IMG/VR virus record: IMGVR_UViG_3300036823_000041
Coordinates: 1-62,291 of that record
Direction: 5' to 3' (one strand)
Length of the DNA: 62,291 nt
DNA from: a virus
Taxonomy: Duplodnaviria; Caudoviricetes
The notes below the pieces were generated by a model that was not told where the DNA came from, searched no databases, and saw nothing but the letters and a program-made list of their open reading frames with translations. Positions 1-17,808 of the stretch are shown here, in pieces. Each line of letters begins with the position of its first letter. Within the stretch, counting starts at the first letter, position 1. A program made the translations under genes and the position numbers.

Positions 1-2
1 TG

Positions 3-632: not shown

Positions 633-638
633 GAATGC

Positions 639-2527: not shown

Positions 2528-2546
2528 GTAGCCCCGCCGGTCCGGT

Positions 2547-2559
2547 TTTTGGTATGAGT
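2547..2559 (+). promoter_or_regulatory. putative late promoter motif TTTTGGTATGAGT (copy 1)
   Basis: Intergenic 13-mer, identical at 45024, 54996 and 55580, with one mismatch at 60805. Confidence 0.7.
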
Positions 2560-2577
2560 TCCCGCGCGAGGGAATCT

Positions 2578-3144
2578 ATGGGCGGCGACGCTGGAACCGA
2601 CGCAGCAAAGAGCGAAAATTCAGACGCGACGGACTGGGAAAATACAGGAGTCGGCAGCTATAACGCGGACCTCGGCAGCTATATGTCGAACGTCAACTCG
2701 GCGCTCGCCGCGGGCAATCCCTATCAGACCACGGCCTATAAGACCGCGCAGAACCTCGAAACGTCGGGCGCGGCCAATTCCGAAGACACTGCCGCGAAGA
2801 CCGCGACCAGGGGCGCCGCCTTGCGCACCGGGCTCAACTCGGCAGCCGTCAACGCGCAGGACTCCGAGAACCGCCTGGCGCAGACGCGCAACATCGACAG
2901 CTTCAACGCGACGCGCGATACCGCCAACGACCAGGCATGGGAGCAGGAACGGCAGGGGCTCATGGGCCAGCAACTCGCCGGAGCCAACTCGCAGGCGGCG
3001 GCAGACGCGGCCTACGGCCAGCAACGCAGTTCCGCTACCAGCGGCCTACTGACGCAGCAGGAAGAAGAAGATCAGATGTGGGCAGGCCTCGGCGAGACGG
3101 CAATGAAGGGCGCCGGAGCCGGATTGACCGCAGCTTTCGCATAG
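2578..3144 (+). CDS. internal virion / ejection protein (small, Ala/Gln/Asn-rich)
   Basis: GAGGG SD before ATG 2578 (MGGDAG...). Helical low-complexity body and Gly/Ala-rich hydrophobic C-terminus. First gene of the ejection cluster. Confidence 0.6.
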   Translation: MGGDAGTDAAKSENSDATDWENTGVGSYNADLGSYMSNVNSALAAGNPYQTTAYKTAQNLETSGAANSEDTAAKTATRGAALRTGLNSAAVNAQDSENRLAQTRNIDSFNATRDTANDQAWEQERQGLMGQQLAGANSQAAADAAYGQQRSSATSGLLTQQEEEDQMWAGLGETAMKGAGAGLTAAFA

Positions 3145-3154
3145 GGAGGACACG

Positions 3155-4564
3155 ATGGCCGCAGCAGATGTCGTGCCTTTTGTCGACGACGACGAAGACG
3201 AGGAAGCGCAGGCGCTCTACAAGGGACCGTCCAAGAGCGAGGACGACGACGCCGATACCGGCAAGTCGCAAGGGACCAAGGGCGCCTATGGCCCGTCTGG
3301 CTCCGGCAAGAGCGGCGGCAGTTCGCAGATGCCGTCGACCGTCGACGCGCCCGCGTCGGATGACCCGGACGAACAGGATCTCGTCGCCCCGAAGTACACT
3401 GCGCCGGATCGCTCCGCGCTGCAGGCTGCGCAGGCCAAACAGTCGACCGACGCAACGGCGATCGACCGCAACGCTCCAGGCGTCAAGCCGACGTGGAAAG
3501 ACCGCTTGCTCGGTGGGCTCGCCGGATTCATGTCGCAGGACGCGGCCGGCGGCGCGAGCGTCACGAATCGGAAGTACAACCAGGCCGTCGCGCAGCAGAA
3601 GGCGAACCTCAGCGCCGATCAGACCGTCGTCAATACGGAGCAGTCGAAGCTCGAGGCCGAGGGCCAGGATTTCGAGCATCAGCTTCAGGCAAACCGCGGC
3701 CAGGTAGCGACGGCAAATGCCAACTCGCTCACTGGCGAGCGCGCCGCCAAGGCTGCGAAGTACGACGCCGCGATCGACCCGAAGTCGATCCATCAGAACG
3801 ACGACGGCGAATGGGAGGGCACGACCTACGGCGGCAAGACGGTCCCGGCATCGCCGCCGGCCGGATTCAATAAGCCGCTTCCGCAGCCGAAGACCTACGA
3901 GGAGCTCGTCTCTGCGTCCGAGAATCCGCAGTACTCGGACGACCAGCGCGCCGGCTTCAGGCGCGCCGCGAAGACCATCCAGGGAACTGAGGTCAAAAAG
4001 TTCCAATCGACCGCGCCGCGGCAATCCGACGAGGAGCTATGGATCGCTGCTTTCAAGCGCGACAACGGACGCGCCCCGAATGCCGACGAACTCGAGCAGC
4101 ACAGCACCCGCAAGAGCTCGGCCGCGAGCGGCCGCACCGCGCGCTCGATCGACGACAAGGCCGCGACCGCCTACCAGGCCATCGAGAAGCAGATTTCCGA
4201 CGGCGATCTCGACCCGAACGTGCCCGAGGATGCGGCCAAGATCAAGAAGGCGAAGCAGAACGTCGAGGACCAGCGCCATCAGGACATGACCGACATCGGC
4301 GTGCAGCACACCCGTTTCGTCTACGACGATGCCAACAAGGGCCACAACGAAGGACCCTCACGGCAGGGACCAGGCAGCCAGCAACGGCAGGCCGCGACGC
4401 CCCCGCAGCAGGGCGGACCAGGCAAAGCTCCCAGGCCTGGCGCGCCGATCGACCGCGCCGGCATTCAGCACTATCTGCAGATGGCGGGCGGCGACAAGGC
4501 GAAGGCCCGCGATCTCATCAAGGCCGACAATTGGACGATTCCGGTATCTGGGAAGAAGGGGTAA
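3155..4564 (+). CDS. ejection (DNA transfer) protein
   Basis: 469 aa, GGAGG SD, acidic N-terminus, LLGGLAGF hydrophobic patch and coiled segments. C-terminal motif IDRAGIQHYLQMAGGDKAKARDLIKADNW. Confidence 0.6.
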   Translation: MAAADVVPFVDDDEDEEAQALYKGPSKSEDDDADTGKSQGTKGAYGPSGSGKSGGSSQMPSTVDAPASDDPDEQDLVAPKYTAPDRSALQAAQAKQSTDATAIDRNAPGVKPTWKDRLLGGLAGFMSQDAAGGASVTNRKYNQAVAQQKANLSADQTVVNTEQSKLEAEGQDFEHQLQANRGQVATANANSLTGERAAKAAKYDAAIDPKSIHQNDDGEWEGTTYGGKTVPASPPAGFNKPLPQPKTYEELVSASENPQYSDDQRAGFRRAAKTIQGTEVKKFQSTAPRQSDEELWIAAFKRDNGRAPNADELEQHSTRKSSAASGRTARSIDDKAATAYQAIEKQISDGDLDPNVPEDAAKIKKAKQNVEDQRHQDMTDIGVQHTRFVYDDANKGHNEGPSRQGPGSQQRQAATPPQQGGPGKAPRPGAPIDRAGIQHYLQMAGGDKAKARDLIKADNWTIPVSGKKG

Positions 4565-4567
4565 GCC

Positions 4568-5302
4568 GTGCCGGATCTTCTCGACGACGTGCATGCCGAG
4601 CAGGCCGCCGGCGACAAAGGCGCAGCCGGCGCTCCGCAGCCCTTGCAGGATGCGACCCGCGACCTCGGCGTCCAGTACCGGCCTGCGTCGACTGACCCGA
4701 ACATCCAGCGCGATGCCGTTGCCGGCAGCGAGAACTCGATCGCCGGCGTCGAAGAAAACGAGCCGCGCCAGGTCGAAGTCAACGACGAGGAGAAGTTCGA
4801 GAACAATGCCGACCAGGTGGTGCCGCATGAGCTCTACCACGTATGGGCGAACAATCTGCCGCCATCGGTCAGGGCGAAGATCCCCGCGAGCACCCAGGCC
4901 GATTATGCCGAGCCGACCGTCGATAGCGTGAACGCGCTCCATCGCCAGGGCAAGACGCTGCTCGACCTGCCCGGAGAGCAAGGCGCGCAGCTCATGGCGT
5001 GGTCCGCGATGCACCCCGACGACCGCAAGGTGCAGGCGGCGATGAAGCCTTATCTCGACGACATGCGCAACACATCGCTCTCGGTGATCCAGGCGACCGG
5101 CCCGCACGATAAGCAGATCAACACCACGCCGCGGGCTCCTGCGGGTCCGCGCGACGACATCCCTGGGATGGAAGGATTCCACATCACGCCCGGCCAAAAT
5201 AAACTCATCCGGCGGCCCGTTGCCGAGCAGTACGTCGACAAGGCCAAAGGCAACCCCGCTGTCGCCCGCATCATGGCGGCGCACGACGGTCACAGGTTCT
5301 AA
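4568..5302 (+). CDS. putative virion cargo protein with zincin HExxH motif
   Basis: 244 aa with VVPHELYHVW and a downstream E (PGEQGA). N-terminus MPDLLDDV is shared with the giant protein, and the C-terminal motif is shared with the upstream protein. Confidence 0.6.
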   Translation: MPDLLDDVHAEQAAGDKGAAGAPQPLQDATRDLGVQYRPASTDPNIQRDAVAGSENSIAGVEENEPRQVEVNDEEKFENNADQVVPHELYHVWANNLPPSVRAKIPASTQADYAEPTVDSVNALHRQGKTLLDLPGEQGAQLMAWSAMHPDDRKVQAAMKPYLDDMRNTSLSVIQATGPHDKQINTTPRAPAGPRDDIPGMEGFHITPGQNKLIRRPVAEQYVDKAKGNPAVARIMAAHDGHRF

Positions 5303-8300
5303 ATGCCCGATCTTCTCGACGACGTAGCCAGCGACCACGCGCAGCCAGATCTGCTCGACGATGTCGCATCGCAGCAACAGCCCGACCAGGGAGACGCCGC
5401 GGCCGCGCAGCAGATGCGCGAGGGACCGCCGCCGACGGCGAAGGGTCCGAGTATCCCCGACCCAGGCATGCGCGAGGAGTCGGTCGGGCGCGCCGTCTTC
5501 GGACCGGCGCAGGGTGCGGTCGATGCGGTAAAGCAGGTTCCCGGCGTAGGACTGCTCGGCGGCAAGAAGCTCAACGACCCGCTCACCGGCACGATCGACA
5601 CCGAGAAGCGCGGCGCCGCGACGTTCAAAGAGGGCCTCGATCTGCTCGGCCCGGACAACTTCGCCGACAACTCGGCCGAGGGGTTCAAGCGGACCGCGCG
5701 CGGCTTTACCAAGCTGGCCGATGGCGCCATGACCATGAGCTCGCCGGCGCTGGCCGCCGAGATGGGCGGAAACCCGGCGTCGATCATCCCGATCGCGAAG
5801 GGCATCATTACCGGCTCGATCACTGGCGCGGCCGCGCAGAAGATCACCAAGGCCGCCGGATTCTCGCAGGATTACCAGGATCTCGCGAAGACCGTCGGCT
5901 TCTTCATCCCGACCGCCGCCGGCGCCATGTTTGGTGCGACTGAGTCGCCCGTGAAATTCGGTGAGGGCACCGGCACGGTAACGGACTACGCCGCGCCGAA
6001 AGGGGCAACCGGACCCGGAAGCGGGCGCGTTTCAACGTTCACCGGCTCGAACCCGCAGGAGTTCACCGCCGGCGCCAGGGTGGGCGGCCGGACCTTCGGC
6101 ATCCGCATACCTCGCGGAAGGGCGGCCGCACCGGGAGCGGCAGGCCCGGACGTGCTGCCACCCCCGCCGAGCCCCGGCATGGCCCAGGCGGCGTCGGACG
6201 CCAAGGCGGCGGCGGCGGCGCTCAATGCCGACCAAGCTGCCACCCAGGCGGCGCAGCGCACGCAGGCAGGCATTCCCCCGCCCGAGCCTCCAAAGCCGGC
6301 AGGGATGGACCAGGGCGAGCTGCGGCCGGGCACCGTAAGCGATGCCGCCAAGCTCATCCAGATGGCGCCCGAGAACATGCGCGGGCCGATGATGCTCGAG
6401 GCGCACGGCAACCTCACCAAGTGGCTCGCGACCAACGGCAAAGTCATCATGCCGGACGGCAAGATCCAGATCATCGACTCGCCGGACAAGGCCGCCAAGG
6501 TCGCCCAGGATCTGCTCAATTCCGAGGTCGATCGCCATCAGCAGGCATTCGAGCAGCAGAAGGCCGATCGCCAGAAGGCCGCCGAGGATGCCGCCAAGCA
6601 ACAGCAGGAAGGCGAAGAGGCCACCATCGAGCAGGCCGGGCAGCCGGGCGGCGAGGAGGAGGAGGAGAATCCGGTCGTCGCCAGGGCGCGGACGATTCTG
6701 GCCGCCAACGCAAATGCCCCGCAATCGCGCCAGCTTGCCCTCCTGCAGCGCCAGCTCCGCGTCGGCCCTGGGATGGCTAACCAGCTTCTACGCCAGGCGC
6801 AGGCCGGCAAAGCCGCCGCAATGGCAGGCGGTATGGTGGGAAGTTCGACCGAGCCGGTGACGCCCGAGCCGAATGAGCAGGTCGACGCGCAGATCCAGTC
6901 GCTCGCCAAAGGGACGGTCCCGGTCGTGTTTCTGCCGGAAGGCTCGAAATACAAGCCGGCGATCCCGCCGGGTATGAAGGCGATCAAGGTATCGGGCGCG
7001 GATACTCCGGGCGCCGGCACCTACGTCTACAACCCGACGAAGATCCAGGCCGCGGCGATCAAAGAGGCGGCCAAGAACGGCACGCACGGCGACCTGCTCG
7101 GCCACATCAACGACAAGGGCGCGATCACCGGCATGAAGGTGCCGGCAATTCTGCAGGCAAAGACTGCGGACGGCACGCCGATCCAGGAGTCGGTCGTCGA
7201 CGGCGCGAATCCGCAGGAGGTCCGCGACCAGGCCGCGGCGCTGCGCGAACGGCACCCCGACGCCCACATCCAGATCCGCCATCCCGAGGCCGCGCTCAAC
7301 GAACGGGACCATCTCATCGCCAGGAGCGAAACCGGCGGCGGCGACATCTTCGACCACATCGCGCAGGAGCGCGGGAAAGGAGAAAGCAATGCCGTACAAA
7401 AGCAAGGCACAGCAAGGGTACTTTCACAGCCCGGCAGGGAAGAAGGCAGTCGGAGCCAAGGTAGTGAAGGAGTTCGACCAGGCGAGCAAGGGGCAGAAAA
7501 ACCTGCCACAGCGCGCGCCGGCGAAGCGGAAGTAAATCCAGTCGAGGGAGGTCCACGGAAGCCAGAGCCAGCGGAGCGCCGGCAGGATACAGAACGGCGC
7601 CGGCGCGTCGCTGAAATGTCGCCCGAGGAGATGCGGCAGGAGCTCCAGACATCCGAGAAAACCGGCCTGCCCAACCGCCGGGCATTCGAGGAAGCCGCGG
7701 ACAAAGGCGCGGTCGGCATGTCGGACGCCGACGGGCTCAAGGCGTTCAATGATCGCTTCGGATACGAGAGCGGCGACAAGCTGCTCCGCGCCAAGGCCGA
7801 CGCGCTGCGCGAGGCTGGCGTCGAGGCGTATCACGACAAGGGCGACGAGTTCCTCTACCGCGGCGAAACCCCCGAGAAGCTGCGCGCCGGACTGGACAAA
7901 GCGCGGGACATTCTGCGGGACAAAATCATCGAGGTAAGGGGAGCGGATGGCACAACCAAACAGTTCAAGGGCGCAGACTTCAGCCACGGCACCGGCAAGG
8001 ACATCGCCGAAGCCGAACGCGGGCTCAAGCAGCACAAAGCCGAGCGAGAAGACCGCGGGGAACGGCGGCGTGGGGAGCTTCGAGGATTTAATGAGGCTGG
8101 ACCCGAAACAGGTCAAGAGCGTGAAGGTGCTGCCATCAAGAAAGGCGACGCCGGAGTCCGATTCAAAGACGACAAGGGAGTCGAACGAGCGGGCACGGTA
8201 GCGCACACCAACGAGCGCGTGACCCGGCTCCGGGCCAACGACGGCAAGGAATACACCGTCAAAACGGCCGGGCTCAAGCCTGCGGCGGACATTACGCCGG

Positions 8301-11300
8301 GCTCGATTGGCGAGCTGCACTCGTCGCAGATCCACCTGGCGCCGAAAGACTTCCAGTACAAAGTCTCAAACATTGGCGCCGAGGGCGTCTCGTCCTTACT
8401 CGAGGGCTCGGAGTGGAACCCGGATCTGTCGGGCATCGTGAGCGTCTGGCGAGATCCCGAGAACGGCAAGTTCTATGCCGTCAACGGACATCACCGCACC
8501 CAGAGGGCGCGCCAGACCGGCGGCCAGACCCTCGCCGTGCGGCACCTGGTCGCCGAGAACCGGGCCGAGGCGCGGGCAATCGGCGCGCTCCAGAACATCG
8601 CCGAGGGCCGCGGCACCGCGGTCGACGCCGCGAAGTTCCTCCGCGACTCCGGCATCTCGCTCGAGGATCTCGAGAAGAAGGGCATCTCGATGGGCGAGGC
8701 GACGGCGCAGAACGGCGTCGCGCTATCCCGCCTCGAGCAGTCCCTCTTCGATCGCGTGGCAACCGGCAAGCTGTCCGAGCGCAAGGGCATCGCCATCGGC
8801 AGGGCGACCGACAACCCGGCGACGCAGGAGGCGATCGTCAAGATGATCGACAAGGCCGAAGCCCGCGGACGCCATGTCTCAGACGCTACGGTGCAAGAGC
8901 TCGCCAGGTTCGCGGCTTCCGCCGGCGAGAAAGAGCAAACCGTCTCTTCCCTTTTTGGCGACCGAGTGGAGACGCAGAATCTCGCGCTCGAGAAGGCCGA
9001 GGCGTCGGCCTACGTGCAGAAGCAACTGCGGGCCGAGAAAAGCCTCTTCGGCGCCGTGTCGAGCGAAGCCAGGGCGAAGACGCTGGCCCGGACCGGCAAC
9101 AAGATTACGGCCGAGAAAAACGCGAAGGAATCCGAGGCTGCAATGCAGGCGCTTGAGGTGTACGATCGCCTGAGCGCGCGGCGCGGGCCGGTCGATGACC
9201 TGCTCAACCAGGCCGCAAAGGATCTCGCCGATGGCAAGCCAGCCGCCCGTACCAAGTCCGAACTCTACGACGGAATCCGAGCCGCAGTACGCGAATCTCT
9301 CGGCGGTGTCCAAGGAAAGAGTCCTCGGCGAAGCGCACCGAGTGCTGACCGACCATCGAACGTCACCCCGGAAAAAGAAGAAGATGGAGACGGACGACTC
9401 TCTGCCGAAGAACTAGAGGCCGTCGGCCAGAACGGCCTCGCCTTCTCGCTCGAGCGCCCGACCTTCACCCGCGACAACGGACCCGTCAATCCTCCGCTGA
9501 CTCCTGCCGACCCGTTCTATCTCAAGAGCTCCCGCGTGGTAGCGCAGAAGATGCGCGGTCCGATGAAGGGCACCGACCTCATCAAGATGCTCGAAAACGC
9601 CGGCGTCAAGGCGGACGAGCTGAAATGGACTGGCCTGCAGGATCTCGTCGGTGAGGCGAAGGTGACGCCGGACCAGGTCCGCGAGGTGCTGAATCAGGAC
9701 CGCGTTGAGCTGATCGAGGATCTCAAGGGCGACATCCACAAAGACAATCTGCCCGACGGCTGGAAGATTCAGCCGAACGAGGACGGCGACGGCTACGAGG
9801 TGCTCGACAATCGCGGCGTCATGGTCGGCGACGGCCCAGACCGCCAGTCTGCACTCGAGCAGGCGCAGCGACAGAACCGCGCCAAGACGGCTATCAGCGA
9901 CACGTCGAAGTACTCCGGCTATCAGCTCCGCGGCGGCGAGAACTACCGCGAGATGCTGATGCAGATGCCGGCGCAAAAGGCCGAGCCGACGGCGCAAGAG
10001 AAGGCGCTGCTCGCGGACATCGACGCGAAGTACGTCCCCCTGTCTAAGGAATGGACGGCGCTCAACGCCTCGAGCAGCTATGAGAAATACCTCGAGGCGG
10101 GCAGCACGATCGCGCCAGATATGGCCCGCAACCTGGCACGGACGCGCGAGATCGAAGACATTCAGGAACGGCTAATCGCGCAGCAAAAGAGGACCGAGGA
10201 CGCCATAGAGAAGCGAGAGAGCGCGGCGAACTATAAGTCGCCGCACTGGGATGAGCCGAACGTCCTCACCCACATTCGATTCAACGACCGCACCGATGCC
10301 GACGGCCGCAAGCTGCTGCATCTCGAAGAGGTTCAGAGCGACTGGCACCAGAAGGGCCGCGACAAGGGCTACCGCGAGGGAGGCGAGCAACTCGCCCCGC
10401 GACCGACGATTGCGCGCATAGAGAAGAAGGACGGCATCGAATGGATCGCCTACGACGAAGCCGGCAAACTGCTGACTCATGTCGGCGCCGGGACCGAACC
10501 GACCGAAGAAGGCGCCCGCGAGTACATGGCGCGCTATCTCAACCGGCGCGCAGACGAGCGAGATGCAGATATGCGCCAGGAGAACTACGACAAGGTGCCC
10601 GACGCACCATTCAAGAAGACCTGGCACGAGCTGGCGCTGCGCCGCATGCTGCGCTACGCCGCCGAGAACGGATACGACGGCCTGAGCTGGACGCCGGGCG
10701 AGAAGCAGGCCGAGCGGTACGACCTGAGCAAGCAGGTCGGCCAGATCGACTACACCCAGCACAACCGCCTCATCGTTCACGACACCGGCCGGAACGTCAT
10801 CCACAACCAGGTAGTGCCGGAAGAGAAGCTCGAGGACTACATCGGAAAAGAGGCGACGCGCAAGCTGCTCGAGACTGAGCCACGCAATCATTCTGGGCTC
10901 GGCTCGGCTTTCGAGAAGTCGCGGACCTTGACCTCGCCCGACCTGAAGCTCGGCGGCGAAGGGATGAAGGGCTTCTACGACAAGATCATCCCCGACTATC
11001 TCGGCAAGTACGGCAAGCAGTGGGGTGCAAAGGTTGGCGAGACGAAGCTATCCATCCCGCTCGACAAGATGCGCGACAAATATGCGTATGAAGGCCCAGA
11101 GCGCACTCGCCAGGAAGTAGAGGCCGCCGAGGATGATCCTCATTCCCTGGCGATCGTAAACATGCAGTCAAGAGCCGTGGCCGCGCTGATGCGTCGCAAT
11201 CGCTCATTCTCTGAAGCGATGGCCGAAGAGGGCAGCCACACGCTCGCGGAGTATTTCGGCGGCAAGATGGTCGAGCCCGAGGGGACCAAGACGCAGGTCG

Positions 11301-14300
11301 CACCTTACCTGCCCGTCACCGACGCCATGCGCAAGAGCGTGATGGAAGAGGGCCAGCCGCTATTCTCCCGCGCTAAGCTCGACGCCACGCCCGAGCAGCA
11401 GGCGCGCGCGCAGCGGCTCACCACGTCCGACCCGAAGTTCCCGTATCTCGACCGGCCCGGCATCGCCAAGCTCTACCAGAAGAACCTGCGCGGCGTCCTG
11501 CTCGAGGGCGAGTCGGCCACACTGCCCGGCTTTGAACCGCACGTCGAGGAACATGAGAAGTCGGCGGCCGAGGTATCGAGCGGCGCGCTCGAGCAACGCG
11601 GCGTGAAGGACATCTCGCGGGCGACGCGGGAGATCGAGCAGAAGTCGCCACTGTTCGAGGGCTCGGCCGCGAACGACCAGGGCGCTCTCTTTTCTCGCCC
11701 GAAGCCGCCGCAGCCAGGCACCGGCCAGGGCGGCCTCGACTTCAGCAAGGCGGTCGAGGGCTCCGGCTTTAAGGAGATGAGCGAATCGCGCAGGGAAGCC
11801 TTCCAGCACGATCTGCATTTTCGGGCCAGTTCGCAGAGCATCGACCGCAACCTGGCCGGCGCAAAGGTCACAGTCCACCCGCCGGCGCGCGAGGGAGCGG
11901 CGCCGTTGACCGAGATCAACGCCGACGCCTACGTCTCGCTGCGCAAGCTGCTCCCTGAGTTCCGCGAGGTGGAATGGGCCGGCGTCTATATCAACCCGAA
12001 ATCGACGCAGATCCTCTACAAGAAGCTGATGATTTCAGGCTCTCAGCGCGACGGGGCGATGGAGCTATTCAAGCAGCTATCGGCCGGCGAGACGCCGAGC
12101 GGGTCGCTCGTCATCGTCCGCGCGGATGCGACCCTGGCCGCCGCCCGCGAGGAGTTGGCTCATTCCTGGTGGAATGACAACGTTGCGAAGCACGAGGACG
12201 GCGAGAATGCCCTGCTCGAGCATCTCCACAACGCGCCGCAATTCCTGCAAGGGCTCAAGATCCTCGACCGCCAGGGCTATCCGATCGACCGGATGCCGCA
12301 CGGCACCCTGCTAAACGAGATCGTCTCGAAGATGCTGGCCGATGCCGGCGGCTCGTCGATGCCCCTTTCGCCTGCCGACGTCAAGGCGTTCCTGGGCCAG
12401 ATGCTCGACGTCTACGCCAACACTTTCAGCACTGTTACTTTGGAGAAGGCTTTCGACACTCTGCCGGAGATTGCGCCGGAAGCGAAGCGTATCCTTGACG
12501 ACTGGAGAGCACAACATGCCGACAATCAACGGGATGCACTTTCTGCCCGCGGACCCGAAGAAGGACACAGCCTTGCGACTACTCAAGGCGATGGCGCAAG
12601 CGGCACGCGAGGCCCGCCAGCGGGGCAAGACTCCGGTCTTCTTTTCAGCCGCGAAAGGCAGCCCGGCGAATCCCGAGGGCGAGACGAAGTAGCGCGCCAG
12701 CGCGACCTGCCCGACGAGGGCGCAGACGAGGAGATGTCGCCGCTCGACAACTTTGTCGGCGCGCTCACCGACTACATCCGCTCGGATTCCGAGCTCGATA
12801 CCGGCAAGCTGCAACGCGGCATTATGCGCGAGACGCGCGGCCAGATGGACCGCCGCATCGCGCAGACCGCGGTCGCGCTCGACAAGGACCGTATGCGGTG
12901 GGCCGGCCGGTCGCATGATGCTTTCCTGAAATTTGCCGACGCCGTCGAAAAGGTCGGCGGCTCGACGGTTGCAGACCTGGACCCGAAGGACCAGAAGCTC
13001 GCGCAATATTTTCAAGATCAGTACTGGAAGCGTATCGAGACAATCCGCGCGCTCAAGGAAGGCGCGCTCCAGGATCTCATCGAGAACTACATCTCGCACA
13101 ACTGGGAGCGGCCAGGCGTCGCCGAAAAGGCGTTCAAGCAGGTTTTCAGCGGGCGCCGTCCGTTCGCCGGCAGAGGCTCTTTCCTCAAGCAGCGCACCAT
13201 CCCCACCATTCGCGAGGGCATCGAGCTCGGCCTGCGGCCGAAGACCTGGAACCCGGTCGAGGATTTCCTGCACAAGATCCTCGAGATGGACCGCTTCATC
13301 ATGGGGCACCAAACGCTCATGGGCATGAAGCAGGCCGGTACCGCGAAGATGATTCGCGTCGGCGATCGCGCTCCCGACGGATGGCTGCAGCTCGACGACC
13401 GCATCGGCACCGTGCAGTCGAAGTCGGAGGACGGCGGCCTAGTGGTCCGCGGCCACTACTACGCGCCGGCAGATGCGGCGAAGCCGTTCAATAACTTTGT
13501 CTCGCGCGGCATCGCCGGCAGGTCGAACATCTACGACGCGCTGCGGTGGGCCAACAACAACATCAACGCCCTGCAGCTCGGCATCTCCTTCTTCCACGCC
13601 ATGACGACGACGAATAACGCGATCGCGTCGGATGTCGGATTGTCGATCCAGGAGATGTCGAAGGGCCAGGTCATCTCGGGCGCCGGTCGCATGGTGCGCG
13701 CCGTAACGATGGTCCCGTCCGTGGTGCAGACGTTCCGCAACGGCTCGAAGCTGATGGCCGAGTACCTTTCGCCCGGCTCTTATGAGAAGTTCGCGAAGGA
13801 GGCCGACGCGCTCGCTTCCGCCGGCGGTCGCGTCAAGATGGATGTCGTCCAGCCGAAGCCACTACTCCAGATCGTGAGCCATTTCCGCAACGGCGAAGTA
13901 TTCCGCGGCGCCGGCAAATCGCTCGGCTCGATCATCCACGCGACCACTTACCCCGTGCTCGAGTACTGGGTGCCGCGCATGAAGGTCGGCGCGTTCTACG
14001 CCGACGCTCATTCGGTGCTGAAGTACGCCAAAGACAAGAACTGGACTCCCGAGCGAACCAGGATGGAGATGCAAAAGGCCTGGGATTCGGCCGATCATCG
14101 TTTCGGCCAGGTGGTCTACGACAATCTGTTCTGGCATAAGGCTCTGCGCGACGTGCTGCAACTCTCGCAGCGCGCGGTCGGATGGAACTATGGAACGGCA
14201 GCCGGCGTCGGCGGCGCCATCCCAGAGGCGGCCAGGGCCGCAGGGCGCGTGGCTACCGGCGACGTGTCCGAGTTCGGTACCCTCTTCGGCCGCGCGATGT

Positions 14301-15253
14301 CCTTTGTGGTCGGCATGACGGTGGCGACCGGACTCATCGGCGCCCTGCTCGAATATCACTGGAACGGACACGGGCCGCGGTCCTCGAAAGACTTCTTTTA
14401 CCCGCAGCGGGCAGACGGCCAGCGCGTCAACGTCCCCGGCTACATGAAGGACGTCGTCGCGTTCGCGCACGCGCCGGTGCAGACCGTGCTCAATAAGCTG
14501 GCGCCGGTCTTCTCCACCCTCGCCGAGCTCTACCAGAACAAGGATTTCTATCGCGTGGAGATCCGGCACGCCGACGACAACTGGCTGCAGCAATCGGAAG
14601 ACACCGGCAAATTCCTCGCGAAGTCGCTCGAGCCTTTCAGTGTGAGCTCGCAGCAGAAGATGATCCAGAACCAGGGCGCCGGCGTCGACACGGGTGTCGG
14701 CGGGATGTGGCGCGCCGTGCTCACGCATCCCGAGGACGCGGTACTCGGCCAGCTTGGCTTTCAGCCAGCGGCGGCCTATGTCCAGAACACCCCGGCGCAA
14801 AACCTGGCCTACGAGTTTTCTGTCTCCAACTCGCCGCCCGGCACGCGCACCCAGGCGCAATTCGAACGGTCGCAGGTCAAGCAGGCGATCACGGCGATGC
14901 ACCGCGCGGGAAAGGTCGACACGGCGCAGATCAACGAATACATCCGCTCGGGCAAAATCACCCGGCACGACGCCGACCTCGCGGCGAAGAATGCGAAGGT
15001 CGACCCGCTGGTCGGCACCGTCAAGCACGGCGAGCTCACTCTGCCGCAGATGCTCGACGTCTTCGACAAGGGCAATGCGCGGGAGCGCAAGCTGCTCCGT
15101 CCGATCCTCGAGCGCAAGGCTCAAACCTACAGCGAGCCGGACCGGGAGCGCCGGCTCGCGGTCAAGGCGAAGCTGCGTCAGGCGCTCGGACACAATCCGC
15201 CGCCGGTCACCGACTCCGACTCTCTCTGGGAGACGATTTCAACGCACCGCTAA
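5303..15253 (+). CDS. giant polyvalent internal virion/ejection protein (FtsK-gamma-like, GGDEF-like, ParB-like, degenerate zincin, helical C-terminal region)
   Basis: 3316-aa ORF. LLQRQLRVG near aa 475; TGLPNRRAF...DADGLKAFNDRFGYESGDKLL...KGDEF at aa ~787-850; VNGHHR at aa ~1061; a conserved-looking LEEVQSDWHQKGR/PDAPFKK/GMKGFYD block; EELAH at aa ~2283; hydrophobic segment near the C-terminus. Confidence 0.85.
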   Translation: MPDLLDDVASDHAQPDLLDDVASQQQPDQGDAAAAQQMREGPPPTAKGPSIPDPGMREESVGRAVFGPAQGAVDAVKQVPGVGLLGGKKLNDPLTGTIDTEKRGAATFKEGLDLLGPDNFADNSAEGFKRTARGFTKLADGAMTMSSPALAAEMGGNPASIIPIAKGIITGSITGAAAQKITKAAGFSQDYQDLAKTVGFFIPTAAGAMFGATESPVKFGEGTGTVTDYAAPKGATGPGSGRVSTFTGSNPQEFTAGARVGGRTFGIRIPRGRAAAPGAAGPDVLPPPPSPGMAQAASDAKAAAAALNADQAATQAAQRTQAGIPPPEPPKPAGMDQGELRPGTVSDAAKLIQMAPENMRGPMMLEAHGNLTKWLATNGKVIMPDGKIQIIDSPDKAAKVAQDLLNSEVDRHQQAFEQQKADRQKAAEDAAKQQQEGEEATIEQAGQPGGEEEEENPVVARARTILAANANAPQSRQLALLQRQLRVGPGMANQLLRQAQAGKAAAMAGGMVGSSTEPVTPEPNEQVDAQIQSLAKGTVPVVFLPEGSKYKPAIPPGMKAIKVSGADTPGAGTYVYNPTKIQAAAIKEAAKNGTHGDLLGHINDKGAITGMKVPAILQAKTADGTPIQESVVDGANPQEVRDQAAALRERHPDAHIQIRHPEAALNERDHLIARSETGGGDIFDHIAQERGKGESNAVQKQGTARVLSQPGREEGSRSQGSEGVRPGEQGAEKPATARAGEAEVNPVEGGPRKPEPAERRQDTERRRRVAEMSPEEMRQELQTSEKTGLPNRRAFEEAADKGAVGMSDADGLKAFNDRFGYESGDKLLRAKADALREAGVEAYHDKGDEFLYRGETPEKLRAGLDKARDILRDKIIEVRGADGTTKQFKGADFSHGTGKDIAEAERGLKQHKAEREDRGERRRGELRGFNEAGPETGQEREGAAIKKGDAGVRFKDDKGVERAGTVAHTNERVTRLRANDGKEYTVKTAGLKPAADITPGSIGELHSSQIHLAPKDFQYKVSNIGAEGVSSLLEGSEWNPDLSGIVSVWRDPENGKFYAVNGHHRTQRARQTGGQTLAVRHLVAENRAEARAIGALQNIAEGRGTAVDAAKFLRDSGISLEDLEKKGISMGEATAQNGVALSRLEQSLFDRVATGKLSERKGIAIGRATDNPATQEAIVKMIDKAEARGRHVSDATVQELARFAASAGEKEQTVSSLFGDRVETQNLALEKAEASAYVQKQLRAEKSLFGAVSSEARAKTLARTGNKITAEKNAKESEAAMQALEVYDRLSARRGPVDDLLNQAAKDLADGKPAARTKSELYDGIRAAVRESLGGVQGKSPRRSAPSADRPSNVTPEKEEDGDGRLSAEELEAVGQNGLAFSLERPTFTRDNGPVNPPLTPADPFYLKSSRVVAQKMRGPMKGTDLIKMLENAGVKADELKWTGLQDLVGEAKVTPDQVREVLNQDRVELIEDLKGDIHKDNLPDGWKIQPNEDGDGYEVLDNRGVMVGDGPDRQSALEQAQRQNRAKTAISDTSKYSGYQLRGGENYREMLMQMPAQKAEPTAQEKALLADIDAKYVPLSKEWTALNASSSYEKYLEAGSTIAPDMARNLARTREIEDIQERLIAQQKRTEDAIEKRESAANYKSPHWDEPNVLTHIRFNDRTDADGRKLLHLEEVQSDWHQKGRDKGYREGGEQLAPRPTIARIEKKDGIEWIAYDEAGKLLTHVGAGTEPTEEGAREYMARYLNRRADERDADMRQENYDKVPDAPFKKTWHELALRRMLRYAAENGYDGLSWTPGEKQAERYDLSKQVGQIDYTQHNRLIVHDTGRNVIHNQVVPEEKLEDYIGKEATRKLLETEPRNHSGLGSAFEKSRTLTSPDLKLGGEGMKGFYDKIIPDYLGKYGKQWGAKVGETKLSIPLDKMRDKYAYEGPERTRQEVEAAEDDPHSLAIVNMQSRAVAALMRRNRSFSEAMAEEGSHTLAEYFGGKMVEPEGTKTQVAPYLPVTDAMRKSVMEEGQPLFSRAKLDATPEQQARAQRLTTSDPKFPYLDRPGIAKLYQKNLRGVLLEGESATLPGFEPHVEEHEKSAAEVSSGALEQRGVKDISRATREIEQKSPLFEGSAANDQGALFSRPKPPQPGTGQGGLDFSKAVEGSGFKEMSESRREAFQHDLHFRASSQSIDRNLAGAKVTVHPPAREGAAPLTEINADAYVSLRKLLPEFREVEWAGVYINPKSTQILYKKLMISGSQRDGAMELFKQLSAGETPSGSLVIVRADATLAAAREELAHSWWNDNVAKHEDGENALLEHLHNAPQFLQGLKILDRQGYPIDRMPHGTLLNEIVSKMLADAGGSSMPLSPADVKAFLGQMLDVYANTFSTVTLEKAFDTLPEIAPEAKRILDDWRAQHADNQRDALSARGPEEGHSLATTQGDGASGTRGPPAGQDSGLLFSRERQPGESRGRDEVARQRDLPDEGADEEMSPLDNFVGALTDYIRSDSELDTGKLQRGIMRETRGQMDRRIAQTAVALDKDRMRWAGRSHDAFLKFADAVEKVGGSTVADLDPKDQKLAQYFQDQYWKRIETIRALKEGALQDLIENYISHNWERPGVAEKAFKQVFSGRRPFAGRGSFLKQRTIPTIREGIELGLRPKTWNPVEDFLHKILEMDRFIMGHQTLMGMKQAGTAKMIRVGDRAPDGWLQLDDRIGTVQSKSEDGGLVVRGHYYAPADAAKPFNNFVSRGIAGRSNIYDALRWANNNINALQLGISFFHAMTTTNNAIASDVGLSIQEMSKGQVISGAGRMVRAVTMVPSVVQTFRNGSKLMAEYLSPGSYEKFAKEADALASAGGRVKMDVVQPKPLLQIVSHFRNGEVFRGAGKSLGSIIHATTYPVLEYWVPRMKVGAFYADAHSVLKYAKDKNWTPERTRMEMQKAWDSADHRFGQVVYDNLFWHKALRDVLQLSQRAVGWNYGTAAGVGGAIPEAARAAGRVATGDVSEFGTLFGRAMSFVVGMTVATGLIGALLEYHWNGHGPRSSKDFFYPQRADGQRVNVPGYMKDVVAFAHAPVQTVLNKLAPVFSTLAELYQNKDFYRVEIRHADDNWLQQSEDTGKFLAKSLEPFSVSSQQKMIQNQGAGVDTGVGGMWRAVLTHPEDAVLGQLGFQPAAAYVQNTPAQNLAYEFSVSNSPPGTRTQAQFERSQVKQAITAMHRAGKVDTAQINEYIRSGKITRHDADLAAKNAKVDPLVGTVKHGELTLPQMLDVFDKGNARERKLLRPILERKAQTYSEPDRERRLAVKAKLRQALGHNPPPVTDSDSLWETISTHR
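7389..7535 (+). CDS. nested +1-frame small basic protein, 48 aa (MPYKSKAQQGYFHSPAGKKAVGAKVVKEFDQASKGQKNLPQRAPAKRK)
   Basis: SD AAAGGAG 6 nt before ATG. Codons end mostly in G/C in this frame while the host frame turns atypical. From memory it resembles small phage proteins beginning MP(F/Y)KSxAQ. Too short for the supplied ORF track. Confidence 0.7.
   Translation: MPYKSKAQQGYFHSPAGKKAVGAKVVKEFDQASKGQKNLPQRAPAKRK
7947..8201 (+). CDS. nested +1-frame small protein, 84 aa, overlapping the end of the GGDEF-like module
   Basis: TAAGGGGAG just upstream of ATG. Protein-like core SFEDLMRLDPKQVKSVKVLP. Host-frame codons are atypical at about 8040-8200. Confidence 0.45.
   Translation: MAQPNSSRAQTSATAPARTSPKPNAGSSSTKPSEKTAGNGGVGSFEDLMRLDPKQVKSVKVLPSRKATPESDSKTTRESNERAR
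9231..9416 (+). CDS. nested +1-frame small protein, 61 aa, after the ParB-like module
   Basis: AAAGGA 8 nt before ATG. Helical-looking core YANLSAVSKERVLGEAHRVL. Host-frame codons are atypical at about 9270-9420. Confidence 0.5.
   Translation: MASQPPVPSPNSTTESEPQYANLSAVSKERVLGEAHRVLTDHRTSPRKKKKMETDDSLPKN
12516..12692 (+). CDS. nested +1-frame small protein, 58 aa (MPTINGMHFLPADPKKDTALRLLKAMAQAAREARQRGK...), after the zincin-like module
   Basis: GGAG 8 nt before ATG. Amphipathic helix. Host-frame codons are atypical at about 12420-12690. Confidence 0.6.
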   Translation: MPTINGMHFLPADPKKDTALRLLKAMAQAAREARQRGKTPVFFSAAKGSPANPEGETK

Positions 15254-15282
15254 ATGTCGCCGTTGTTGCACAATAAGAGCGG

Positions 15283-15870
15283 ATGGCATCACGGAAGGCA
15301 ACGCGGCAAGCGGTGAGGGTGCCCAGGTCGGGCGAGGCGGCTATCTCCGACCAGGAGATGACCTTCTGCCATTACATGCTCGGCCACGATGCCGCCGGCA
15401 AGCGTTACACCCTGCTGGCATGCGCGGCGATGGCCGGGCTCGATCTCGACCAGGCTGGCGCGGAGCAGCTTTCAAATACCGCCCGCGTCCGCGAGTACTG
15501 TGCCGTCTACGCAAATGAGCTGGCGCGCCAGATGGCATGCCAGGAGTCGCTGCGCCGCGCGGAGTACGAGCTCTCGCCGATGGCGGTCGCGAGCGAACTG
15601 CTCTATCTGCTGAAATTCAGCAAGGACGATCGAGCTCGCGTTGCCGCCGGCGCCAGGCTGCTCGACTGGTTCGGCCCGCTCGACGACCGCCTCAAGAGGG
15701 CCTCGCGCGACGACCTGATGTACCTGGCCGCGCATGGTCGTTTCCCCGAGGAGCGGCTGCAGGCGCCGGCTCCCGAAGTCATGCCGCCGGCAGCGGCGAG
15801 TGCGCCGCACGGCGAGATTCTCGCGCCCATCGGAAAAGAGCAACCCGTCGAGGAGGAGTGGGCGCTATGA
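15283..15870 (+). CDS. terminase small subunit
   Basis: ISDQEMTFCHYM...ACAAMAGL HTH-like start and DRARVAAGARLLD motif. ATGA overlap with the terminase ATPase gene. Confidence 0.65.
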   Translation: MASRKATRQAVRVPRSGEAAISDQEMTFCHYMLGHDAAGKRYTLLACAAMAGLDLDQAGAEQLSNTARVREYCAVYANELARQMACQESLRRAEYELSPMAVASELLYLLKFSKDDRARVAAGARLLDWFGPLDDRLKRASRDDLMYLAAHGRFPEERLQAPAPEVMPPAAASAPHGEILAPIGKEQPVEEEWAL

Positions 15871-16631
15871 GCGGATACGTTTCGCGCCCGAGTCCGGTGC
15901 GGATGAACGTCTTTCTCCAGGCGATGGCGCGCCGGCGCCTGGCTCTCCGCGAACAGGAGCTCGCGATCGCGACCGACCGGCCAGCGGTCGAGGCCGAAGA
16001 GGACGTGCAGCACCAGGAGACGCTGGTGCGTTCCGCGATGGGCTCGGCGCATCATTGGCTGCTCAATCACACCATGACGTTCAACGAGCATTGGGCCGAC
16101 GAGGGTTTCGAGTCTCCCGAGGAGCCCTTTCCCGACTTTGAATACCTGCCGCTCGTGATGCAGTTACTCGAGGCGCAGGAGAAAGTCGTCTGCCTTGAAA
16201 AGTCGCGCGACCTGATGGCGAGCTGGATGTGCGTCGGCTACTTCACCTTCATGGCGCAGAAGCGGCCGCGCACGCAATGCGTCTTTCAGTCGCAGCAGAA
16301 GGAAAAGGCGTTCCAGCTCATCGACTACGCCAAGCAGCTATGGCGATCGCAGCCGAAATTTCTCCGCGATGCTTACCCGCTGACCAAGGACGTCGATGCC
16401 TTCTCTGAATCCGAGATGATTTACGCGCACGGCTCTCAGCTCTTTGCCATACCGGGCGGCAAGGACGGGCTACGCTCGTACCATCCCTGGGGATACATGA
16501 GCGACGAGGCTGGCTTCCAGCCGGAGGCCGGCGGCGCCTACGCGACGGCCCTGGCCGGCTGCAATAAGATCATTCTCAACTCGACGGCGAACGCATCCTG
16601 GTACGCCGATTTCCGAAATGACGCCTACTAG
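15867..16631 (+). CDS. terminase large subunit, ATPase part
   Basis: GAGGAGG SD. VCLEKSRDLMASW (Walker A-like), YMSDEAGF (Walker B) and ILNSTAN (coupling motif). Confidence 0.8.
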   Translation: MSGYVSRPSPVRMNVFLQAMARRRLALREQELAIATDRPAVEAEEDVQHQETLVRSAMGSAHHWLLNHTMTFNEHWADEGFESPEEPFPDFEYLPLVMQLLEAQEKVVCLEKSRDLMASWMCVGYFTFMAQKRPRTQCVFQSQQKEKAFQLIDYAKQLWRSQPKFLRDAYPLTKDVDAFSESEMIYAHGSQLFAIPGGKDGLRSYHPWGYMSDEAGFQPEAGGAYATALAGCNKIILNSTANASWYADFRNDAY

Positions 16632-17808
16632 CGACGACCGCATAACCCGCGCGATGGCCGAGCTCGACGGGCTCCCGCCGCAGACCTCGGTCGAGGTCGC
16701 CAAGGGCGTAGAGATCCGGCGCAAGGCCTCGGGCATTCTGGTCGTATCGCTTCACTACTCGGCTGATCCGCGGCGCGACCCTGAGACGCCAGAGGGGCAG
16801 GCGTGGGTCAAGGCCGAGCGTGCCGGCTATCCGACGCAGGGCGACTGGGACCGCGAGCAGGAGATTGACGACACGGCCGGCGGCGGCGAGCGCATGCTGG
16901 CGCCACTGCTGCAGGCCTACGGCGACAAGATCATCATCAGCGACCCGAACTGGATGCCCGATCCGCGGTGGGAGTGTGTCGAGGGCTTCGATCATGGCGT
17001 CTCGAATCCGACGGCCATGCTCAAAATGTACATAGACTTCAACGGCGATCGCTATCTCTGTGGCGAGTACTACAACTGGCGCCGTGATCCGAAGCCGAAC
17101 CGCGACGATCCAGGATGGGCAAACGAGATCAGCGATAACGCGCCGTACCTCATCGCGCTGCACAATCTCCGCAAGCCGCGCTGGTCACTCGCCGACCCGT
17201 CCATCTTCAACCAGAGGAACCAGGCGCAGAAGGACGGCAAGTTCACCTTCACCAGTGTGATTTACCGCGAGCAGGGTGTGCGATTCCTGTCGCCGTTCCC
17301 GAGCGAACTGCCGCGCGAGGACGAAACCTATATGACCCGGCTGCGCGAGCACTGGGGCGGCCTCGACGAAGAGGGCCAGCAGCCAACGCTCTACATCGTT
17401 TGCCGACCGCATCTCGATACCGGCTATCGCATTCCAGGCCTGCATCCCTACGACTGCCCCAATTTGCTGTGGGAGATGCGCCGGCGCAAGCGGGTCCAGC
17501 TCACCGACCGGCAACTCATGGCGCGCAATCAGTCAGAGAAGCTCGTCGACAAGGACAACCATGCTTGCGATGCCCACAAATACATGGAAATGAAGATGCC
17601 GCGGCCGACGCGCAAGCCGATCGAAATGCTCTACGAGGAGCAGGTCGCCGGCCCGATGCGGGAGATCCTCGCAGCGCGCGGTCAGGCGCCGATGAATCCG
17701 ATGTCTGAAGCGGTTGCGATGTCGCGCTATCTGGCTCTTGGCGGCGGCCAGCCTAAGAGGGGCGGCCAGGTGTCGACCCGAAACAGGCGCCGCATGCCTC
17801 TCCGGTAA
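16618..17808 (+). CDS. terminase large subunit, lid plus RNase H-like nuclease part
   Basis: LHYSADP...WDREQEID, then EGFDHGVSNPTA, LADPS and DKDNHACDA acidic nuclease motifs. Confidence 0.8.
   Translation: MTPTSDDRITRAMAELDGLPPQTSVEVAKGVEIRRKASGILVVSLHYSADPRRDPETPEGQAWVKAERAGYPTQGDWDREQEIDDTAGGGERMLAPLLQAYGDKIIISDPNWMPDPRWECVEGFDHGVSNPTAMLKMYIDFNGDRYLCGEYYNWRRDPKPNRDDPGWANEISDNAPYLIALHNLRKPRWSLADPSIFNQRNQAQKDGKFTFTSVIYREQGVRFLSPFPSELPREDETYMTRLREHWGGLDEEGQQPTLYIVCRPHLDTGYRIPGLHPYDCPNLLWEMRRRKRVQLTDRQLMARNQSEKLVDKDNHACDAHKYMEMKMPRPTRKPIEMLYEEQVAGPMREILAARGQAPMNPMSEAVAMSRYLALGGGQPKRGGQVSTRNRRRMPLR

Follow-up and report, generated by a model that had tools for sequence, protein, structure and literature searches.

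The IMG/VR virus record IMGVR_UViG_3300036823_000041 is a stretch of 62,291 bp from an uncultivated phage (CheckV completeness estimate about 48%, G+C content about 64%), the whole of which is called the window in the following. It contains a giant open reading frame (ORF), whose reading frame is referred to as frame 0, and four short ORFs (ORF1 to ORF4), which are located wholly within the giant ORF, on the same strand and in its +1 frame. An initial annotation had claimed that these ORFs are encoded in linkers of the giant protein and that each is preceded by a Shine-Dalgarno (SD)-like element. All four were found at the claimed coordinates with lengths of 48, 84, 61 and 58 amino acids (aa). 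The analysis suggests that the four regions are probably dual-coding: frame 0 would encode hydrophilic linkers between modules, and the +1 frame would encode four small proteins of about 50 to 85 aa, each produced from its own internal SD-like element and ATG. The features concerned are the following (pairing energies with the anti-SD sequence in kcal/mol; ranks among the 43 +1-frame ATGs of the giant gene).

5303-15253, plus strand: giant ORF (frame 0), 3316 aa, modular and probably of the polyvalent type; its modules were mapped by tblastn to related contigs.
7376-7382, plus strand: SD-like element AAAGGAG of ORF1, 6 nucleotides (nt) upstream of the ATG, -8.7, best of 43; formed by the rare codons AAA-GGA-GAA.
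7389-7535, plus strand: ORF1 (product p1), 48 aa, +1 frame; small-protein family 'MPYKS..VKEFDQASKG.KLP'.
7574-8092, plus strand: GGDEF-like module of the giant protein, aa 758-930, motif KGDEF; conserved in 17 contigs.
7935-7943, plus strand: SD-like element TAAGGGGAG of ORF2, -8.3, rank 2 of 43; formed by the rare codons GTA-AGG-GGA.
7947-8201, plus strand: ORF2 (product p2), 84 aa, +1 frame; overlaps the 3' end of the GGDEF-like module and the next linker.
8070-8135, plus strand: conserved core of ORF2, 'VGSFEDLMRLDPKQVKSVKVLP', with +1 BLOSUM scores above those of frame 0.
8282-9301, plus strand: ParB-like module of the giant protein, aa 994-1333; homologues in 21 contigs.
9217-9222, plus strand: SD-like element AAAGGA of ORF3, weak, -5.4.
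9231-9416, plus strand: ORF3 (product p3), 61 aa, +1 frame; longest form from 9195; ATG conserved in the related contig L002.
9279-9347, plus strand: conserved core of ORF3, 'EPQYANLSAVSKERVLGEAHRVL', in the windows (aa 1324-1353) where +1 exceeds frame 0.
12504-12507, plus strand: SD-like element GGAG of ORF4, 8 nt upstream of the ATG, -6.4, rank 5 of 43; the L002 counterpart has -9.3.
12516-12692, plus strand: ORF4 (product p4), 58 aa, +1 frame; longest form from 12342.

Longer forms of two of the ORFs were missing from the list of the initial annotation, namely 9195-9416 (73 aa) for ORF3 and 12342-12692 (116 aa) for ORF4; the internal ATGs at 9231 and 12516 are the ones that are positionally kept in L002, the closest homologue. 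The openness of the four frames was dropped as evidence. A stop codon in the +1 frame requires a T at the second position of a frame-0 codon, which is scarce in hydrophilic linkers, and openness is therefore expected. Synonymous randomisation, which preserved the frame-0 protein and the codon usage of the gene, left the +1 frame free of stops with probabilities of 0.85, 0.44, 0.52 and 0.85 over the spans of ORF1 to ORF4, and the giant gene contains 18 +1-frame ORFs of at least 40 aa. These numbers would suit chance ORFs, in which stops cannot arise because the linkers are short of T at position 2 and which, together with their SD-like strings, have no function; moreover, GGAG-like strings are natural in linkers rich in G, E and R. 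The codon composition, however, argues against this explanation. The giant ORF has G+C contents of 0.68, 0.46 and 0.82 at the first, second and third codon positions (GC1, GC2 and GC3). Within ORF1 to ORF4, the frame-0 GC3 is only 0.41, 0.60, 0.47 and 0.51, and GC1, equivalent to position 3 in the +1 frame, is 0.74-0.80. When the gene was scanned blindly in about 329 windows (30 codons each), 22 windows were flagged by a GC3 below 0.62, 21 of which form four clusters (aa 681-770, 901-960, 1311-1380 and 2381-2450) that correspond to the four ORFs; the remaining one, at aa 1921, is isolated. The frame-0 codon shift claimed for these linkers is thus both real and specific. Compared with synonymous randomisation, the dips have z scores of -7.3 (ORF1), -5.4 (ORF2 core), -7.0 (ORF3) and -5.8 (ORF4), and they are present again in L002 (z -2.6 to -5.3) and, for the ORF2 core, in seven further contigs (z -2.4 to -5.3). 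Chance is further opposed by +1 frames that are conserved above frame 0, by start signals built from rare codons and, for ORF1, by family homology (E 2e-12) and by a giant frame that is closed in 58 of 60 stand-alone genes of the same family; it is regarded as very improbable, and for ORF1 it is already contradicted.

SD-like elements are indeed present ahead of all four ORFs, with that of ORF3 being weak; among the 43 +1-frame ATGs, those of ORF1, ORF2, ORF3 and ORF4 rank 1, 2, 11 and 5, respectively. Every one of the four ATGs is read as NAT-G in frame 0, and the start signals, of which the ORF3 signal is weak, are maintained by rare frame-0 codons. None of the four peptides has a match in Pfam or PHROGs.

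Viral-contig scans identified 13 and then five more loci with the GGDEF-like module and 21 loci with the ParB-like module; a scan with alignment A7, which is narrower than A4, yielded no contigs beyond those already found. The closest relative, L002, shares 68% identity in the conserved modules and is the sole contig that spans all four regions. In all relatives, the long ORF keeps one frame through the four regions, and the ORF2 and ORF3 profile matches in the fetched loci all lie in short +1 ORFs of 34-140 codons and none in the frame of the giant ORF. When the window was compared with L002 over all alignable windows (337), runs of at least three windows in which +1 is the better conserved frame were confined to ORF1, ORF3 and ORF4; ORF2 has one such window, and about ten single windows are scattered elsewhere.

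ORF1 is a full member of a phage small-protein family, the 'MPYKS' family, with the pattern MPYKS.AQ..F(F/A)H...VKEFDQASKG.KLP followed by a K-rich tail. Searches of protein databases yielded 101 proteins of 45-80 aa that were called as genes of their own, 79 of which match at E<1e-3 (best 2.3e-12, 50-76% identity); the best matches share 70-76% identity over 85-98% of the length, and ORF1 begins with Met-Pro-Tyr-Lys-Ser, as the stand-alone relatives do. Relatives are encoded at no fewer than 297 viral loci, and the 80 loci kept range from 33 to 68% G+C. Fourteen of these 80 were excluded, as peptide and flanks are identical to those of another locus, which leaves 66 non-duplicate loci. A scan of prokaryote genomes with the family alignment found only two loci, both in metagenome-assembled genomes. 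Most relatives are stand-alone genes beside terminase and portal genes, in phages that lack the domains of the window. Of ten large genes adjoining stand-alone copies, six have PHROG matches: three to the terminase large subunit and one each to a portal protein, a 'virion structural protein' and a head decoration protein.

The family is nested in six of the 66 non-duplicate loci, within ORFs of 665-2063 codons and in the +1 phase every time; with the window and L002, this gives eight nested copies. The eight giant proteins concerned share almost nothing beyond the overlapped linker, with the exception of the pairs window/L002, L002/L075 and L056/L081. The giant-like frame is open across the 42-codon ORF1 core in all six nested loci and in only two of 60 stand-alone copies, compared with 26 of 60 for the remaining alternative frame. 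As the giant-like frame is normally closed over ORF1, nesting needs selected codons, and such codons must hold the giant frame open here. The Phe codon of the EF(D/N) motif, for instance, is TTC in three of three nested copies, compared with 18 TTT and 11 TTC in stand-alone copies. A hidden Markov model (HMM) was trained on 59 stand-alone copies only (training range 67-93.5 bits; L072 was omitted owing to its variant N-terminus). It scores the window's ORF1 at 81.4 bits and the L002 copy at 52.4 bits; all nested copies except that of L002 (seven of eight) reach 73.8-82.4 bits, and giant-frame readings of the same DNA at most 1.2 bits. Furthermore, the window, L002, L075 and L095 have AAGGAG ahead of the nested ATG, and the SD of the L002 copy, AAAGGAGGA, has a pairing energy of -11.6. 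The open-frame and HMM controls, together with this strong SD, argue for selection on both frames at ORF1.

In the ESM Atlas, the named cluster closest to ORF1 is 'putative DUF3008' (100% viral, score 0.89), which serves only as a lead to the nearest named family: ORF1 itself has no Pfam match at E<=1, and one of 34 relatives matches PF11450 (DUF3008), with an E value of 0.0039. The ORF1 domain also forms the N-terminus of longer proteins of 131-571 aa (L091:4550-6262, L043:512-904, L085:5001-5432 and L080:5001-5414), for which Pfam and PHROGs gave nothing except a weak Rubrerythrin match in L080.

Alongside the GGDEF-like module, ORF2 is found in the window and, as judged by its profile, in 14 other contigs. 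In frame 0, the alignment is conserved up to 'GERARGELRGI' and decays thereafter; the +1 frame there reads 'VGSFEELLKLDPKQVKSVKVLP' with conservative changes. Nine contigs were used for the core statistics, and eight of the 17 were left out on account of an unalignable linker or a weak core. The identities at the three frame-0 codon positions of the core are 0.47, 0.53 and 0.62, with BLOSUM scores of 1.05 in frame 0 and 2.08 in +1; in the GGDEF-like domain of the same nine contigs, the identities are 0.77, 0.82 and 0.40, and the BLOSUM scores are 3.52 in frame 0 and 0.91 in +1. Nine of 12 loci have the ATG at the same place, each preceded at a distance of about 12 nt by an SD-like site (-7.6 to -8.2 kcal/mol). 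These signals are formed by the Tyr codon TAT (9/9 loci) and the Gly codon GGA (8/9), whose gene-wide shares are mostly 0.13-0.33. The window has lost the common start signals and has CAC and GGC in their place, together with a new ATG and TAAGGGGAG 13 codons upstream; this turnover argues for internal initiation. The giants of L004 (3172-3600) and L010 (3133-3600) open with three to four repeats of 'Y(S/E)DVP.GYKVLP', and the +1 core of ORF2 ends with 'VKVLP'; the 'KVLP' likeness may reflect the same short motif or coincidence.

With its profile, ORF3 was detected in the window and 18 further contigs, in each case within a short +1 ORF of 52-140 codons whose end mostly coincides with that of the motif. 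It is missing from three contigs with the ParB-like module, namely L122, where the module ends at a stop, L128 and L129. Among six contigs, +1 is more conserved than frame 0 in only four adjacent windows out of 38 sliding windows (aa 1324-1353), with identities of 0.39, 0.73 and 0.66 by codon position; L010, a near-duplicate of L004, was left out of the ORF3 statistics. In 13 further contigs with the module (36-51% frame-0 identity), frame 0 is a gap-rich G/A/R/E linker at ORF3, and the +1 frame keeps '..PT..S.P...KLSPE...(V/I/M)L..LK..'. Of 16 loci, 11 have an ATG no more than three codons away from the profile start and a further one has a GTG; the SD-like sites are of modest strength. Single-sequence viral scans of the ORF3 and ORF4 regions detected no relative.

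For ORF4, both start and stop are at matching places in L002, where a +1 stop lies 8 codons before the ATG, and the end of the ORF coincides exactly with the end of the homology of the preceding module to L002 (aa 2463). In both genomes, rare AGR and NAT codons give rise to the SD-like element and the ATG: the window has TGG-AGA..CAT and L002 has TGG-AGG..AAT, and the share of AGR among Arg codons is 0.08 in the window gene and 0.05 in the L002 gene. The switch from frame-0-dominant to +1-dominant conservation is located at the ATG: aa 2391-2404 have BLOSUM scores of 2.71 in frame 0 and 0.43 in +1 (identity 0.64, 0.57 and 0.36 by codon position), whereas aa 2405-2435 have 1.06 and 1.71 (0.39, 0.68 and 0.65). 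In the final 28 codons, identity is about 0.8 at every codon position. As this part overlaps with a frame-0 'LLFSR' motif, both frames may be constrained there. At this place, the frame-0 'LFSR'-type motif overlaps +1 'TPVFFS'. The alignment of the ORF4 module (A3) found only the contig of L002 among viral contigs and none among metagenome contigs, and the peptide alignment (A6) found no match in metagenome contigs.

Near-uniform identity of this kind would also be produced by conserved but non-coding nucleotide elements within the linkers, such as RNA structures or recombination joints for module shuffling; indeed, the regions are located at module boundaries, where the architectures of the contigs differ. 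However, the identity has a three-base periodicity in which frame-0 position 1 is least conserved, amino-acid replacements in +1 are conservative, the relatives of ORF1 are recognised at the protein level across 33 to 68% G+C, and Rfam gave no match at E<=1. Non-coding elements are thus an extremely improbable explanation.

TPR, receiver, HNH and other proteins likewise carry the motifs of ORF2 and ORF3 in frame. When a profile was built from ten ORF2 peptides, it matched 48 proteins at E<=1e-3 among 1.84 billion representatives; some of these matches, of about 52 aa, are the same nested ORF called elsewhere and are therefore not independent evidence. In P0102 ('TPR repeat protein'), P0121 ('response OmpR family regulator'), P0132 ('McrA'), P0124 and P0137, the ORF2 core is an in-frame C-terminal tail, and P0102, P0121, P0124 and P0137 end 2-4 residues past 'VLP'. 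In P0129 ('GGDEF domain-containing protein'), the GGDEF-like domain continues in frame into the core, and in P0107 and P0128 ORF2-like and ORF3-like motifs are joined in one frame (the names of P0102, P0121, P0132 and P0129 are those given by their source). The ORF2 core resembles half a TPR repeat, as the weaker multi-stretch matches are ordinary TPR proteins.

Such tails could also be formed in the window by programmed +1 frameshifting near the end of a module, which would yield truncated products with the conserved +1 peptide at the C-terminus. The nested ORFs terminate just past the motif and +1 conservation starts near the end of each domain, as expected for this mechanism, and for ORF2 to ORF4 it keeps some probability because the ORF2 core acts as a C-terminal tail elsewhere. 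On the other hand, ORF1 has the same Met-Pro-Tyr-Lys-Ser N-terminus as its stand-alone relatives, ATG and SD-like element are kept by rare frame-0 codons at ORF2 and ORF4, and the ORF2 start has turned over in the window. In L002, +1 stops are located 8-9 codons upstream of the ATGs of ORF3 and ORF4. Inspection of the codon alignments by eye revealed no conserved slippery site, and the Rfam search was negative, as mentioned above. CTT-CGA was considered as a +1 slip site at the ORF2 core and rejected because it is part of the conserved 'GSFEEL' motif that the in-frame tails share. Overall, frameshifting is judged unlikely.

The in-frame versions found elsewhere could alternatively mean that the +1 peptides are fossil frames, that is, unexpressed relics of the tails of once-separate genes which were fused by frameshift mutations. 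The ORFs stop at module boundaries, the stand-alone GGDEF-like genes of L008, L011 and L014 lack ORF2, and the ParB-like module of L122 ends at a stop without ORF3, all of which would fit such relics. Unexpressed frames, however, would not be expected to retain conservative substitutions at 36-66% frame-0 identity with the third position of +1 being the most variable, nor a start turnover that keeps ORF2 translatable in the window. Moreover, apart from the lower score of L002, the nested ORF1 copies (seven of eight) fall in the score range of stand-alone genes. This explanation is considered quite improbable.

Several observations weigh against dual coding or limit its support. The openness of the +1 frames in hydrophilic linkers is expected by chance, and the gene contains 18 such ORFs, as described above. 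At ORF1, the comparison of the window with L002 does not separate the frames (1.27 vs. 1.24), and in two of the six nested loci, L075 and L105, the overlap may be only partial, as ORF1 is located close to the 5' end of the long ORF. When all 17 contigs with the GGDEF-like module are aligned, there is no window in which +1 exceeds frame 0, the ORF2 signal being confined to the nine-contig subset whose linkers align. The SD-like element of ORF3 is weak (-5.4), and among 17 diverse contigs with the ParB-like module the two frames are nearly equal at the ORF3 core (0.65 in frame 0, 0.71 in +1). In this widest set, the identity by codon position is flat at the core (0.435, 0.486 and 0.486) in comparison with the domain (0.58, 0.66 and 0.36); a flat profile would fit double constraint, yet it is the weaker evidence. 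ORF3 and ORF4 have no called homologue in a set of 5.8 billion proteins. ORF4 depends on a single homologue, L002, and it has no ESM Atlas hit (recognition 1690).

Selection on the embedded frame, by which overlapping genes are recognised, is nevertheless indicated for ORF1 by family homology and for ORF2 to ORF4 by +1 conservation above frame 0, with frame-0 position 1 being least conserved; the signal is weaker in the widest alignments of ORF2 and ORF3. Protein-level selection thus acts on the +1 frame in all four regions. In line with the initial annotation, the linkers look dual-coding and the +1 ORFs resemble real small genes: ORF1 belongs to a family, the SD-like elements and ATGs come from rare codons, and ORF2 and ORF3 are better conserved in +1 than in frame 0. 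It was also fair to state that standard annotation would miss the four ORFs.

The four microproteins would be produced by internal initiation at their own SD-like elements and ATGs on the mRNA of the giant gene. Internal initiation is the best-supported mechanism because of the native N-terminus of ORF1, the start signals made of rare codons, the start turnover of ORF2 and the +1 stops upstream of ORF3 and ORF4. A search of positions 5000-15500 found no promoter-like sites. The small genes and peptide modules would represent the older layer, and the giant gene would have been assembled by reading across them in another frame; if the small genes are older, it is the long gene that overprints the short one.

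It had been proposed that the nested products are cognate inhibitors or chaperones of the adjacent domains and travel with them. Physically, such joint travel is seen for two of the four, ORF2 with the GGDEF-like module and ORF3 with the ParB-like module. As the other giants in which ORF1 is nested share nothing else with that of the window, ORF1 is not a specific partner of the GGDEF-like module, and its usual place as a stand-alone gene by terminase and portal genes, in phages without these domains, argues against the cognate-partner claim. The idea of cognate inhibitors or chaperones is not supported by the sequence comparisons; both the distribution of ORF1 and the presence of ORF2 and ORF3 motifs on TPR, receiver and HNH proteins argue against it. 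The products may instead be microproteins of the virion-assembly or docking type, a role towards which the evidence points loosely, as ORF1 is normally found in head and packaging modules and the motifs of ORF2 and ORF3 are portable tails on effector-like proteins.

It is conceivable, although the idea is tentative, that giant polyvalent genes are built from mobile dual-coding linker cassettes. Frame 0 of such a cassette would provide a flexible joint, and its +1 frame a separately translated docking or packaging adaptor related to the C-terminal tails of effectors; the ORF1 cassette would have moved, in one fixed phase, into otherwise unrelated giants, and L004, L006 and L012 might hold more cassettes. 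In these three relatives, a scan for GC3 dips flags further linkers with protein-like +1 ORFs:

L006:8003-8284 and L006:6887-7111, +1 candidates with GC3 dips; one +1 ORF of L006 has 94 aa.
L012:6752-6937 and L012:7295-7594, +1 candidates with GC3 dips; one reads 'GGFKVTSESGKNLSKP..'.
L004:8312-8563 and L004:9263-9448, +1 candidates with GC3 dips.

A +1 ORF of L004 and the tail of the database protein P0132 have 'PVVQAFN.AL.E.R' in common. Pfam and PHROGs gave no match for these further candidates.

The labels given to the modules of the giant protein by the initial annotation were confirmed in part. Pfam GGDEF (PF00990) matches aa 787-838 with an E value of 1.1e-4 and 22.4 bits, which is below the gathering cut-off of 23.8 and covers only model positions 7-69; moreover, the module has KGDEF in place of GG[DE]EF, and its assignment to PF00990 is not supported. 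Solved diguanylate cyclases match the module at E 2.5e-4, so that aa 758-930 may be called GGDEF-like with weak support. The ParB-like label is tentatively backed by phrog_21 and phrog_723: aa 994-1333 match phrog_21 at 6.2e-69, but only in the C-terminal part of its 1362-position 'portal protein' profile, and the ParB-like match via phrog_723 is weak (E 0.03). The 'zincin-like' label of the module preceding ORF4 is not confirmed, since searches with this module gave no match, and Pfam and PHROG scans found no family for the remaining modules of the protein. The 'ejection protein' label is likewise unconfirmed because the genes flanking the giant ORF (1-5302 and 15283-17808) have no PHROG match at E<=1e-3; the phage lineage is therefore poorly represented in reference families. 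Cultured-phage records gave no match by blastn of positions 6800-13300, by tblastn of ORF1 or by tblastn of the family member P0056.

Further features were noticed in the giant protein and its relatives. Where modules of the giant protein end, or close to such places, there are repeated occurrences of a frame-0 motif, '(G/P)LLF(S/K)R' or 'LFSR' (about aa 1380, 2018, 2128 and 2440; window positions of about 9420-9480, 11350-11365, 11680-11700 and 12620-12640). The giants of L004 and L010 contain it as well, and it may be a processing or docking site. The Met of frame-0 'AEMSPEEM' (window 7610-7640) is kept at the start of the GGDEF-like module in most aligned contigs, and also in L008, where the module is a separate short gene; it could be an in-frame internal start for a module-only product. 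A 2H-phosphoesterase module directly follows nested ORF1 in L075 (giant aa 169-286; Pfam 2_5_RNA_ligase2 2.7e-8, Acb1 5e-4) and in L002 (6340-6900, marked by two H.T motifs), and such a module precedes the GGDEF-like module in the giants of L004 and L010; the window has none.

That tiny phages have overlapping genes is textbook knowledge; such genes are regarded as rare in large double-stranded DNA phages, and embedded ORFs are discarded by gene callers. In the present case, four conserved small genes seem to be concealed in a single gene, the ORF1 cassette recurs in unrelated giants, and related contigs show more candidates. If this is true, the small-protein content of phage metagenomes is under-counted, the 'linkers' of polyvalent proteins hold information of their own, and there is a concrete way in which giant multi-domain genes could arise, with small genes being read across instead of deleted. 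It would also make available a clean design for testing the function of the microproteins, as ATGs that are read as NAT-G can be knocked out silently in frame 0. A full-text literature search found no account of genes embedded in polyvalent or giant virion proteins and no paper with the term DUF3008.

The closest parallels come from several known systems. The Rz1 spanin gene of phage lambda is a small gene with its own start that is located wholly inside the larger Rz gene in the +1 frame; both products are made and are known partners. The four ORFs resemble Rz1 in being nested in the +1 frame of a larger phage gene and in having their own starts. However, Rz and Rz1 are a single pair of partners, whereas here four ORFs are located in linkers of one 3316-codon gene, at least one of them (ORF1) is a widespread and probably older stand-alone gene, and a partnership is only hypothetical. 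At the programmed frameshift sites of prfB and dnaX, an internal SD-like element is located inside the coding frame close to the frame change. An SD-like element near a frame change is also found here, but neither a slippery site nor an in-frame stop was recognised by eye, and the elements are at initiation distance from conserved ATGs. DUF3008 (PF11450), a family of short viral or bacterial proteins, is similar to ORF1 in kind, although ORF1 has no Pfam match. Polyvalent proteins of phages and conjugative elements, for which GGDEF domains and a DdrB-like ParB domain have been named (Iyer et al. 2017, PMC5512222), share with the giant protein the multi-domain organisation: the window contributes GGDEF-like and ParB-like modules, to which its relatives add the 2H-phosphoesterase module. 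The words 'frameshift', 'overlap' and 'linker' are absent from the main text of that article, which describes no genes embedded in a second frame. Finally, gene E of phiX174, nested in gene D, is the classic example of overprinting; a review describes the internal overlaps of phiX174 and states that most internal overlaps are +1 (PMC8227390). Here, too, a gene is nested in another frame of a phage gene, but in a contig of more than 62 kb without an obvious need for compression, compared with a genome of 5 kb. Furthermore, the nested gene of phiX174 is taken as the new one, whereas in the case of ORF1 the nested gene would be old and the linker of the long gene the new reading.

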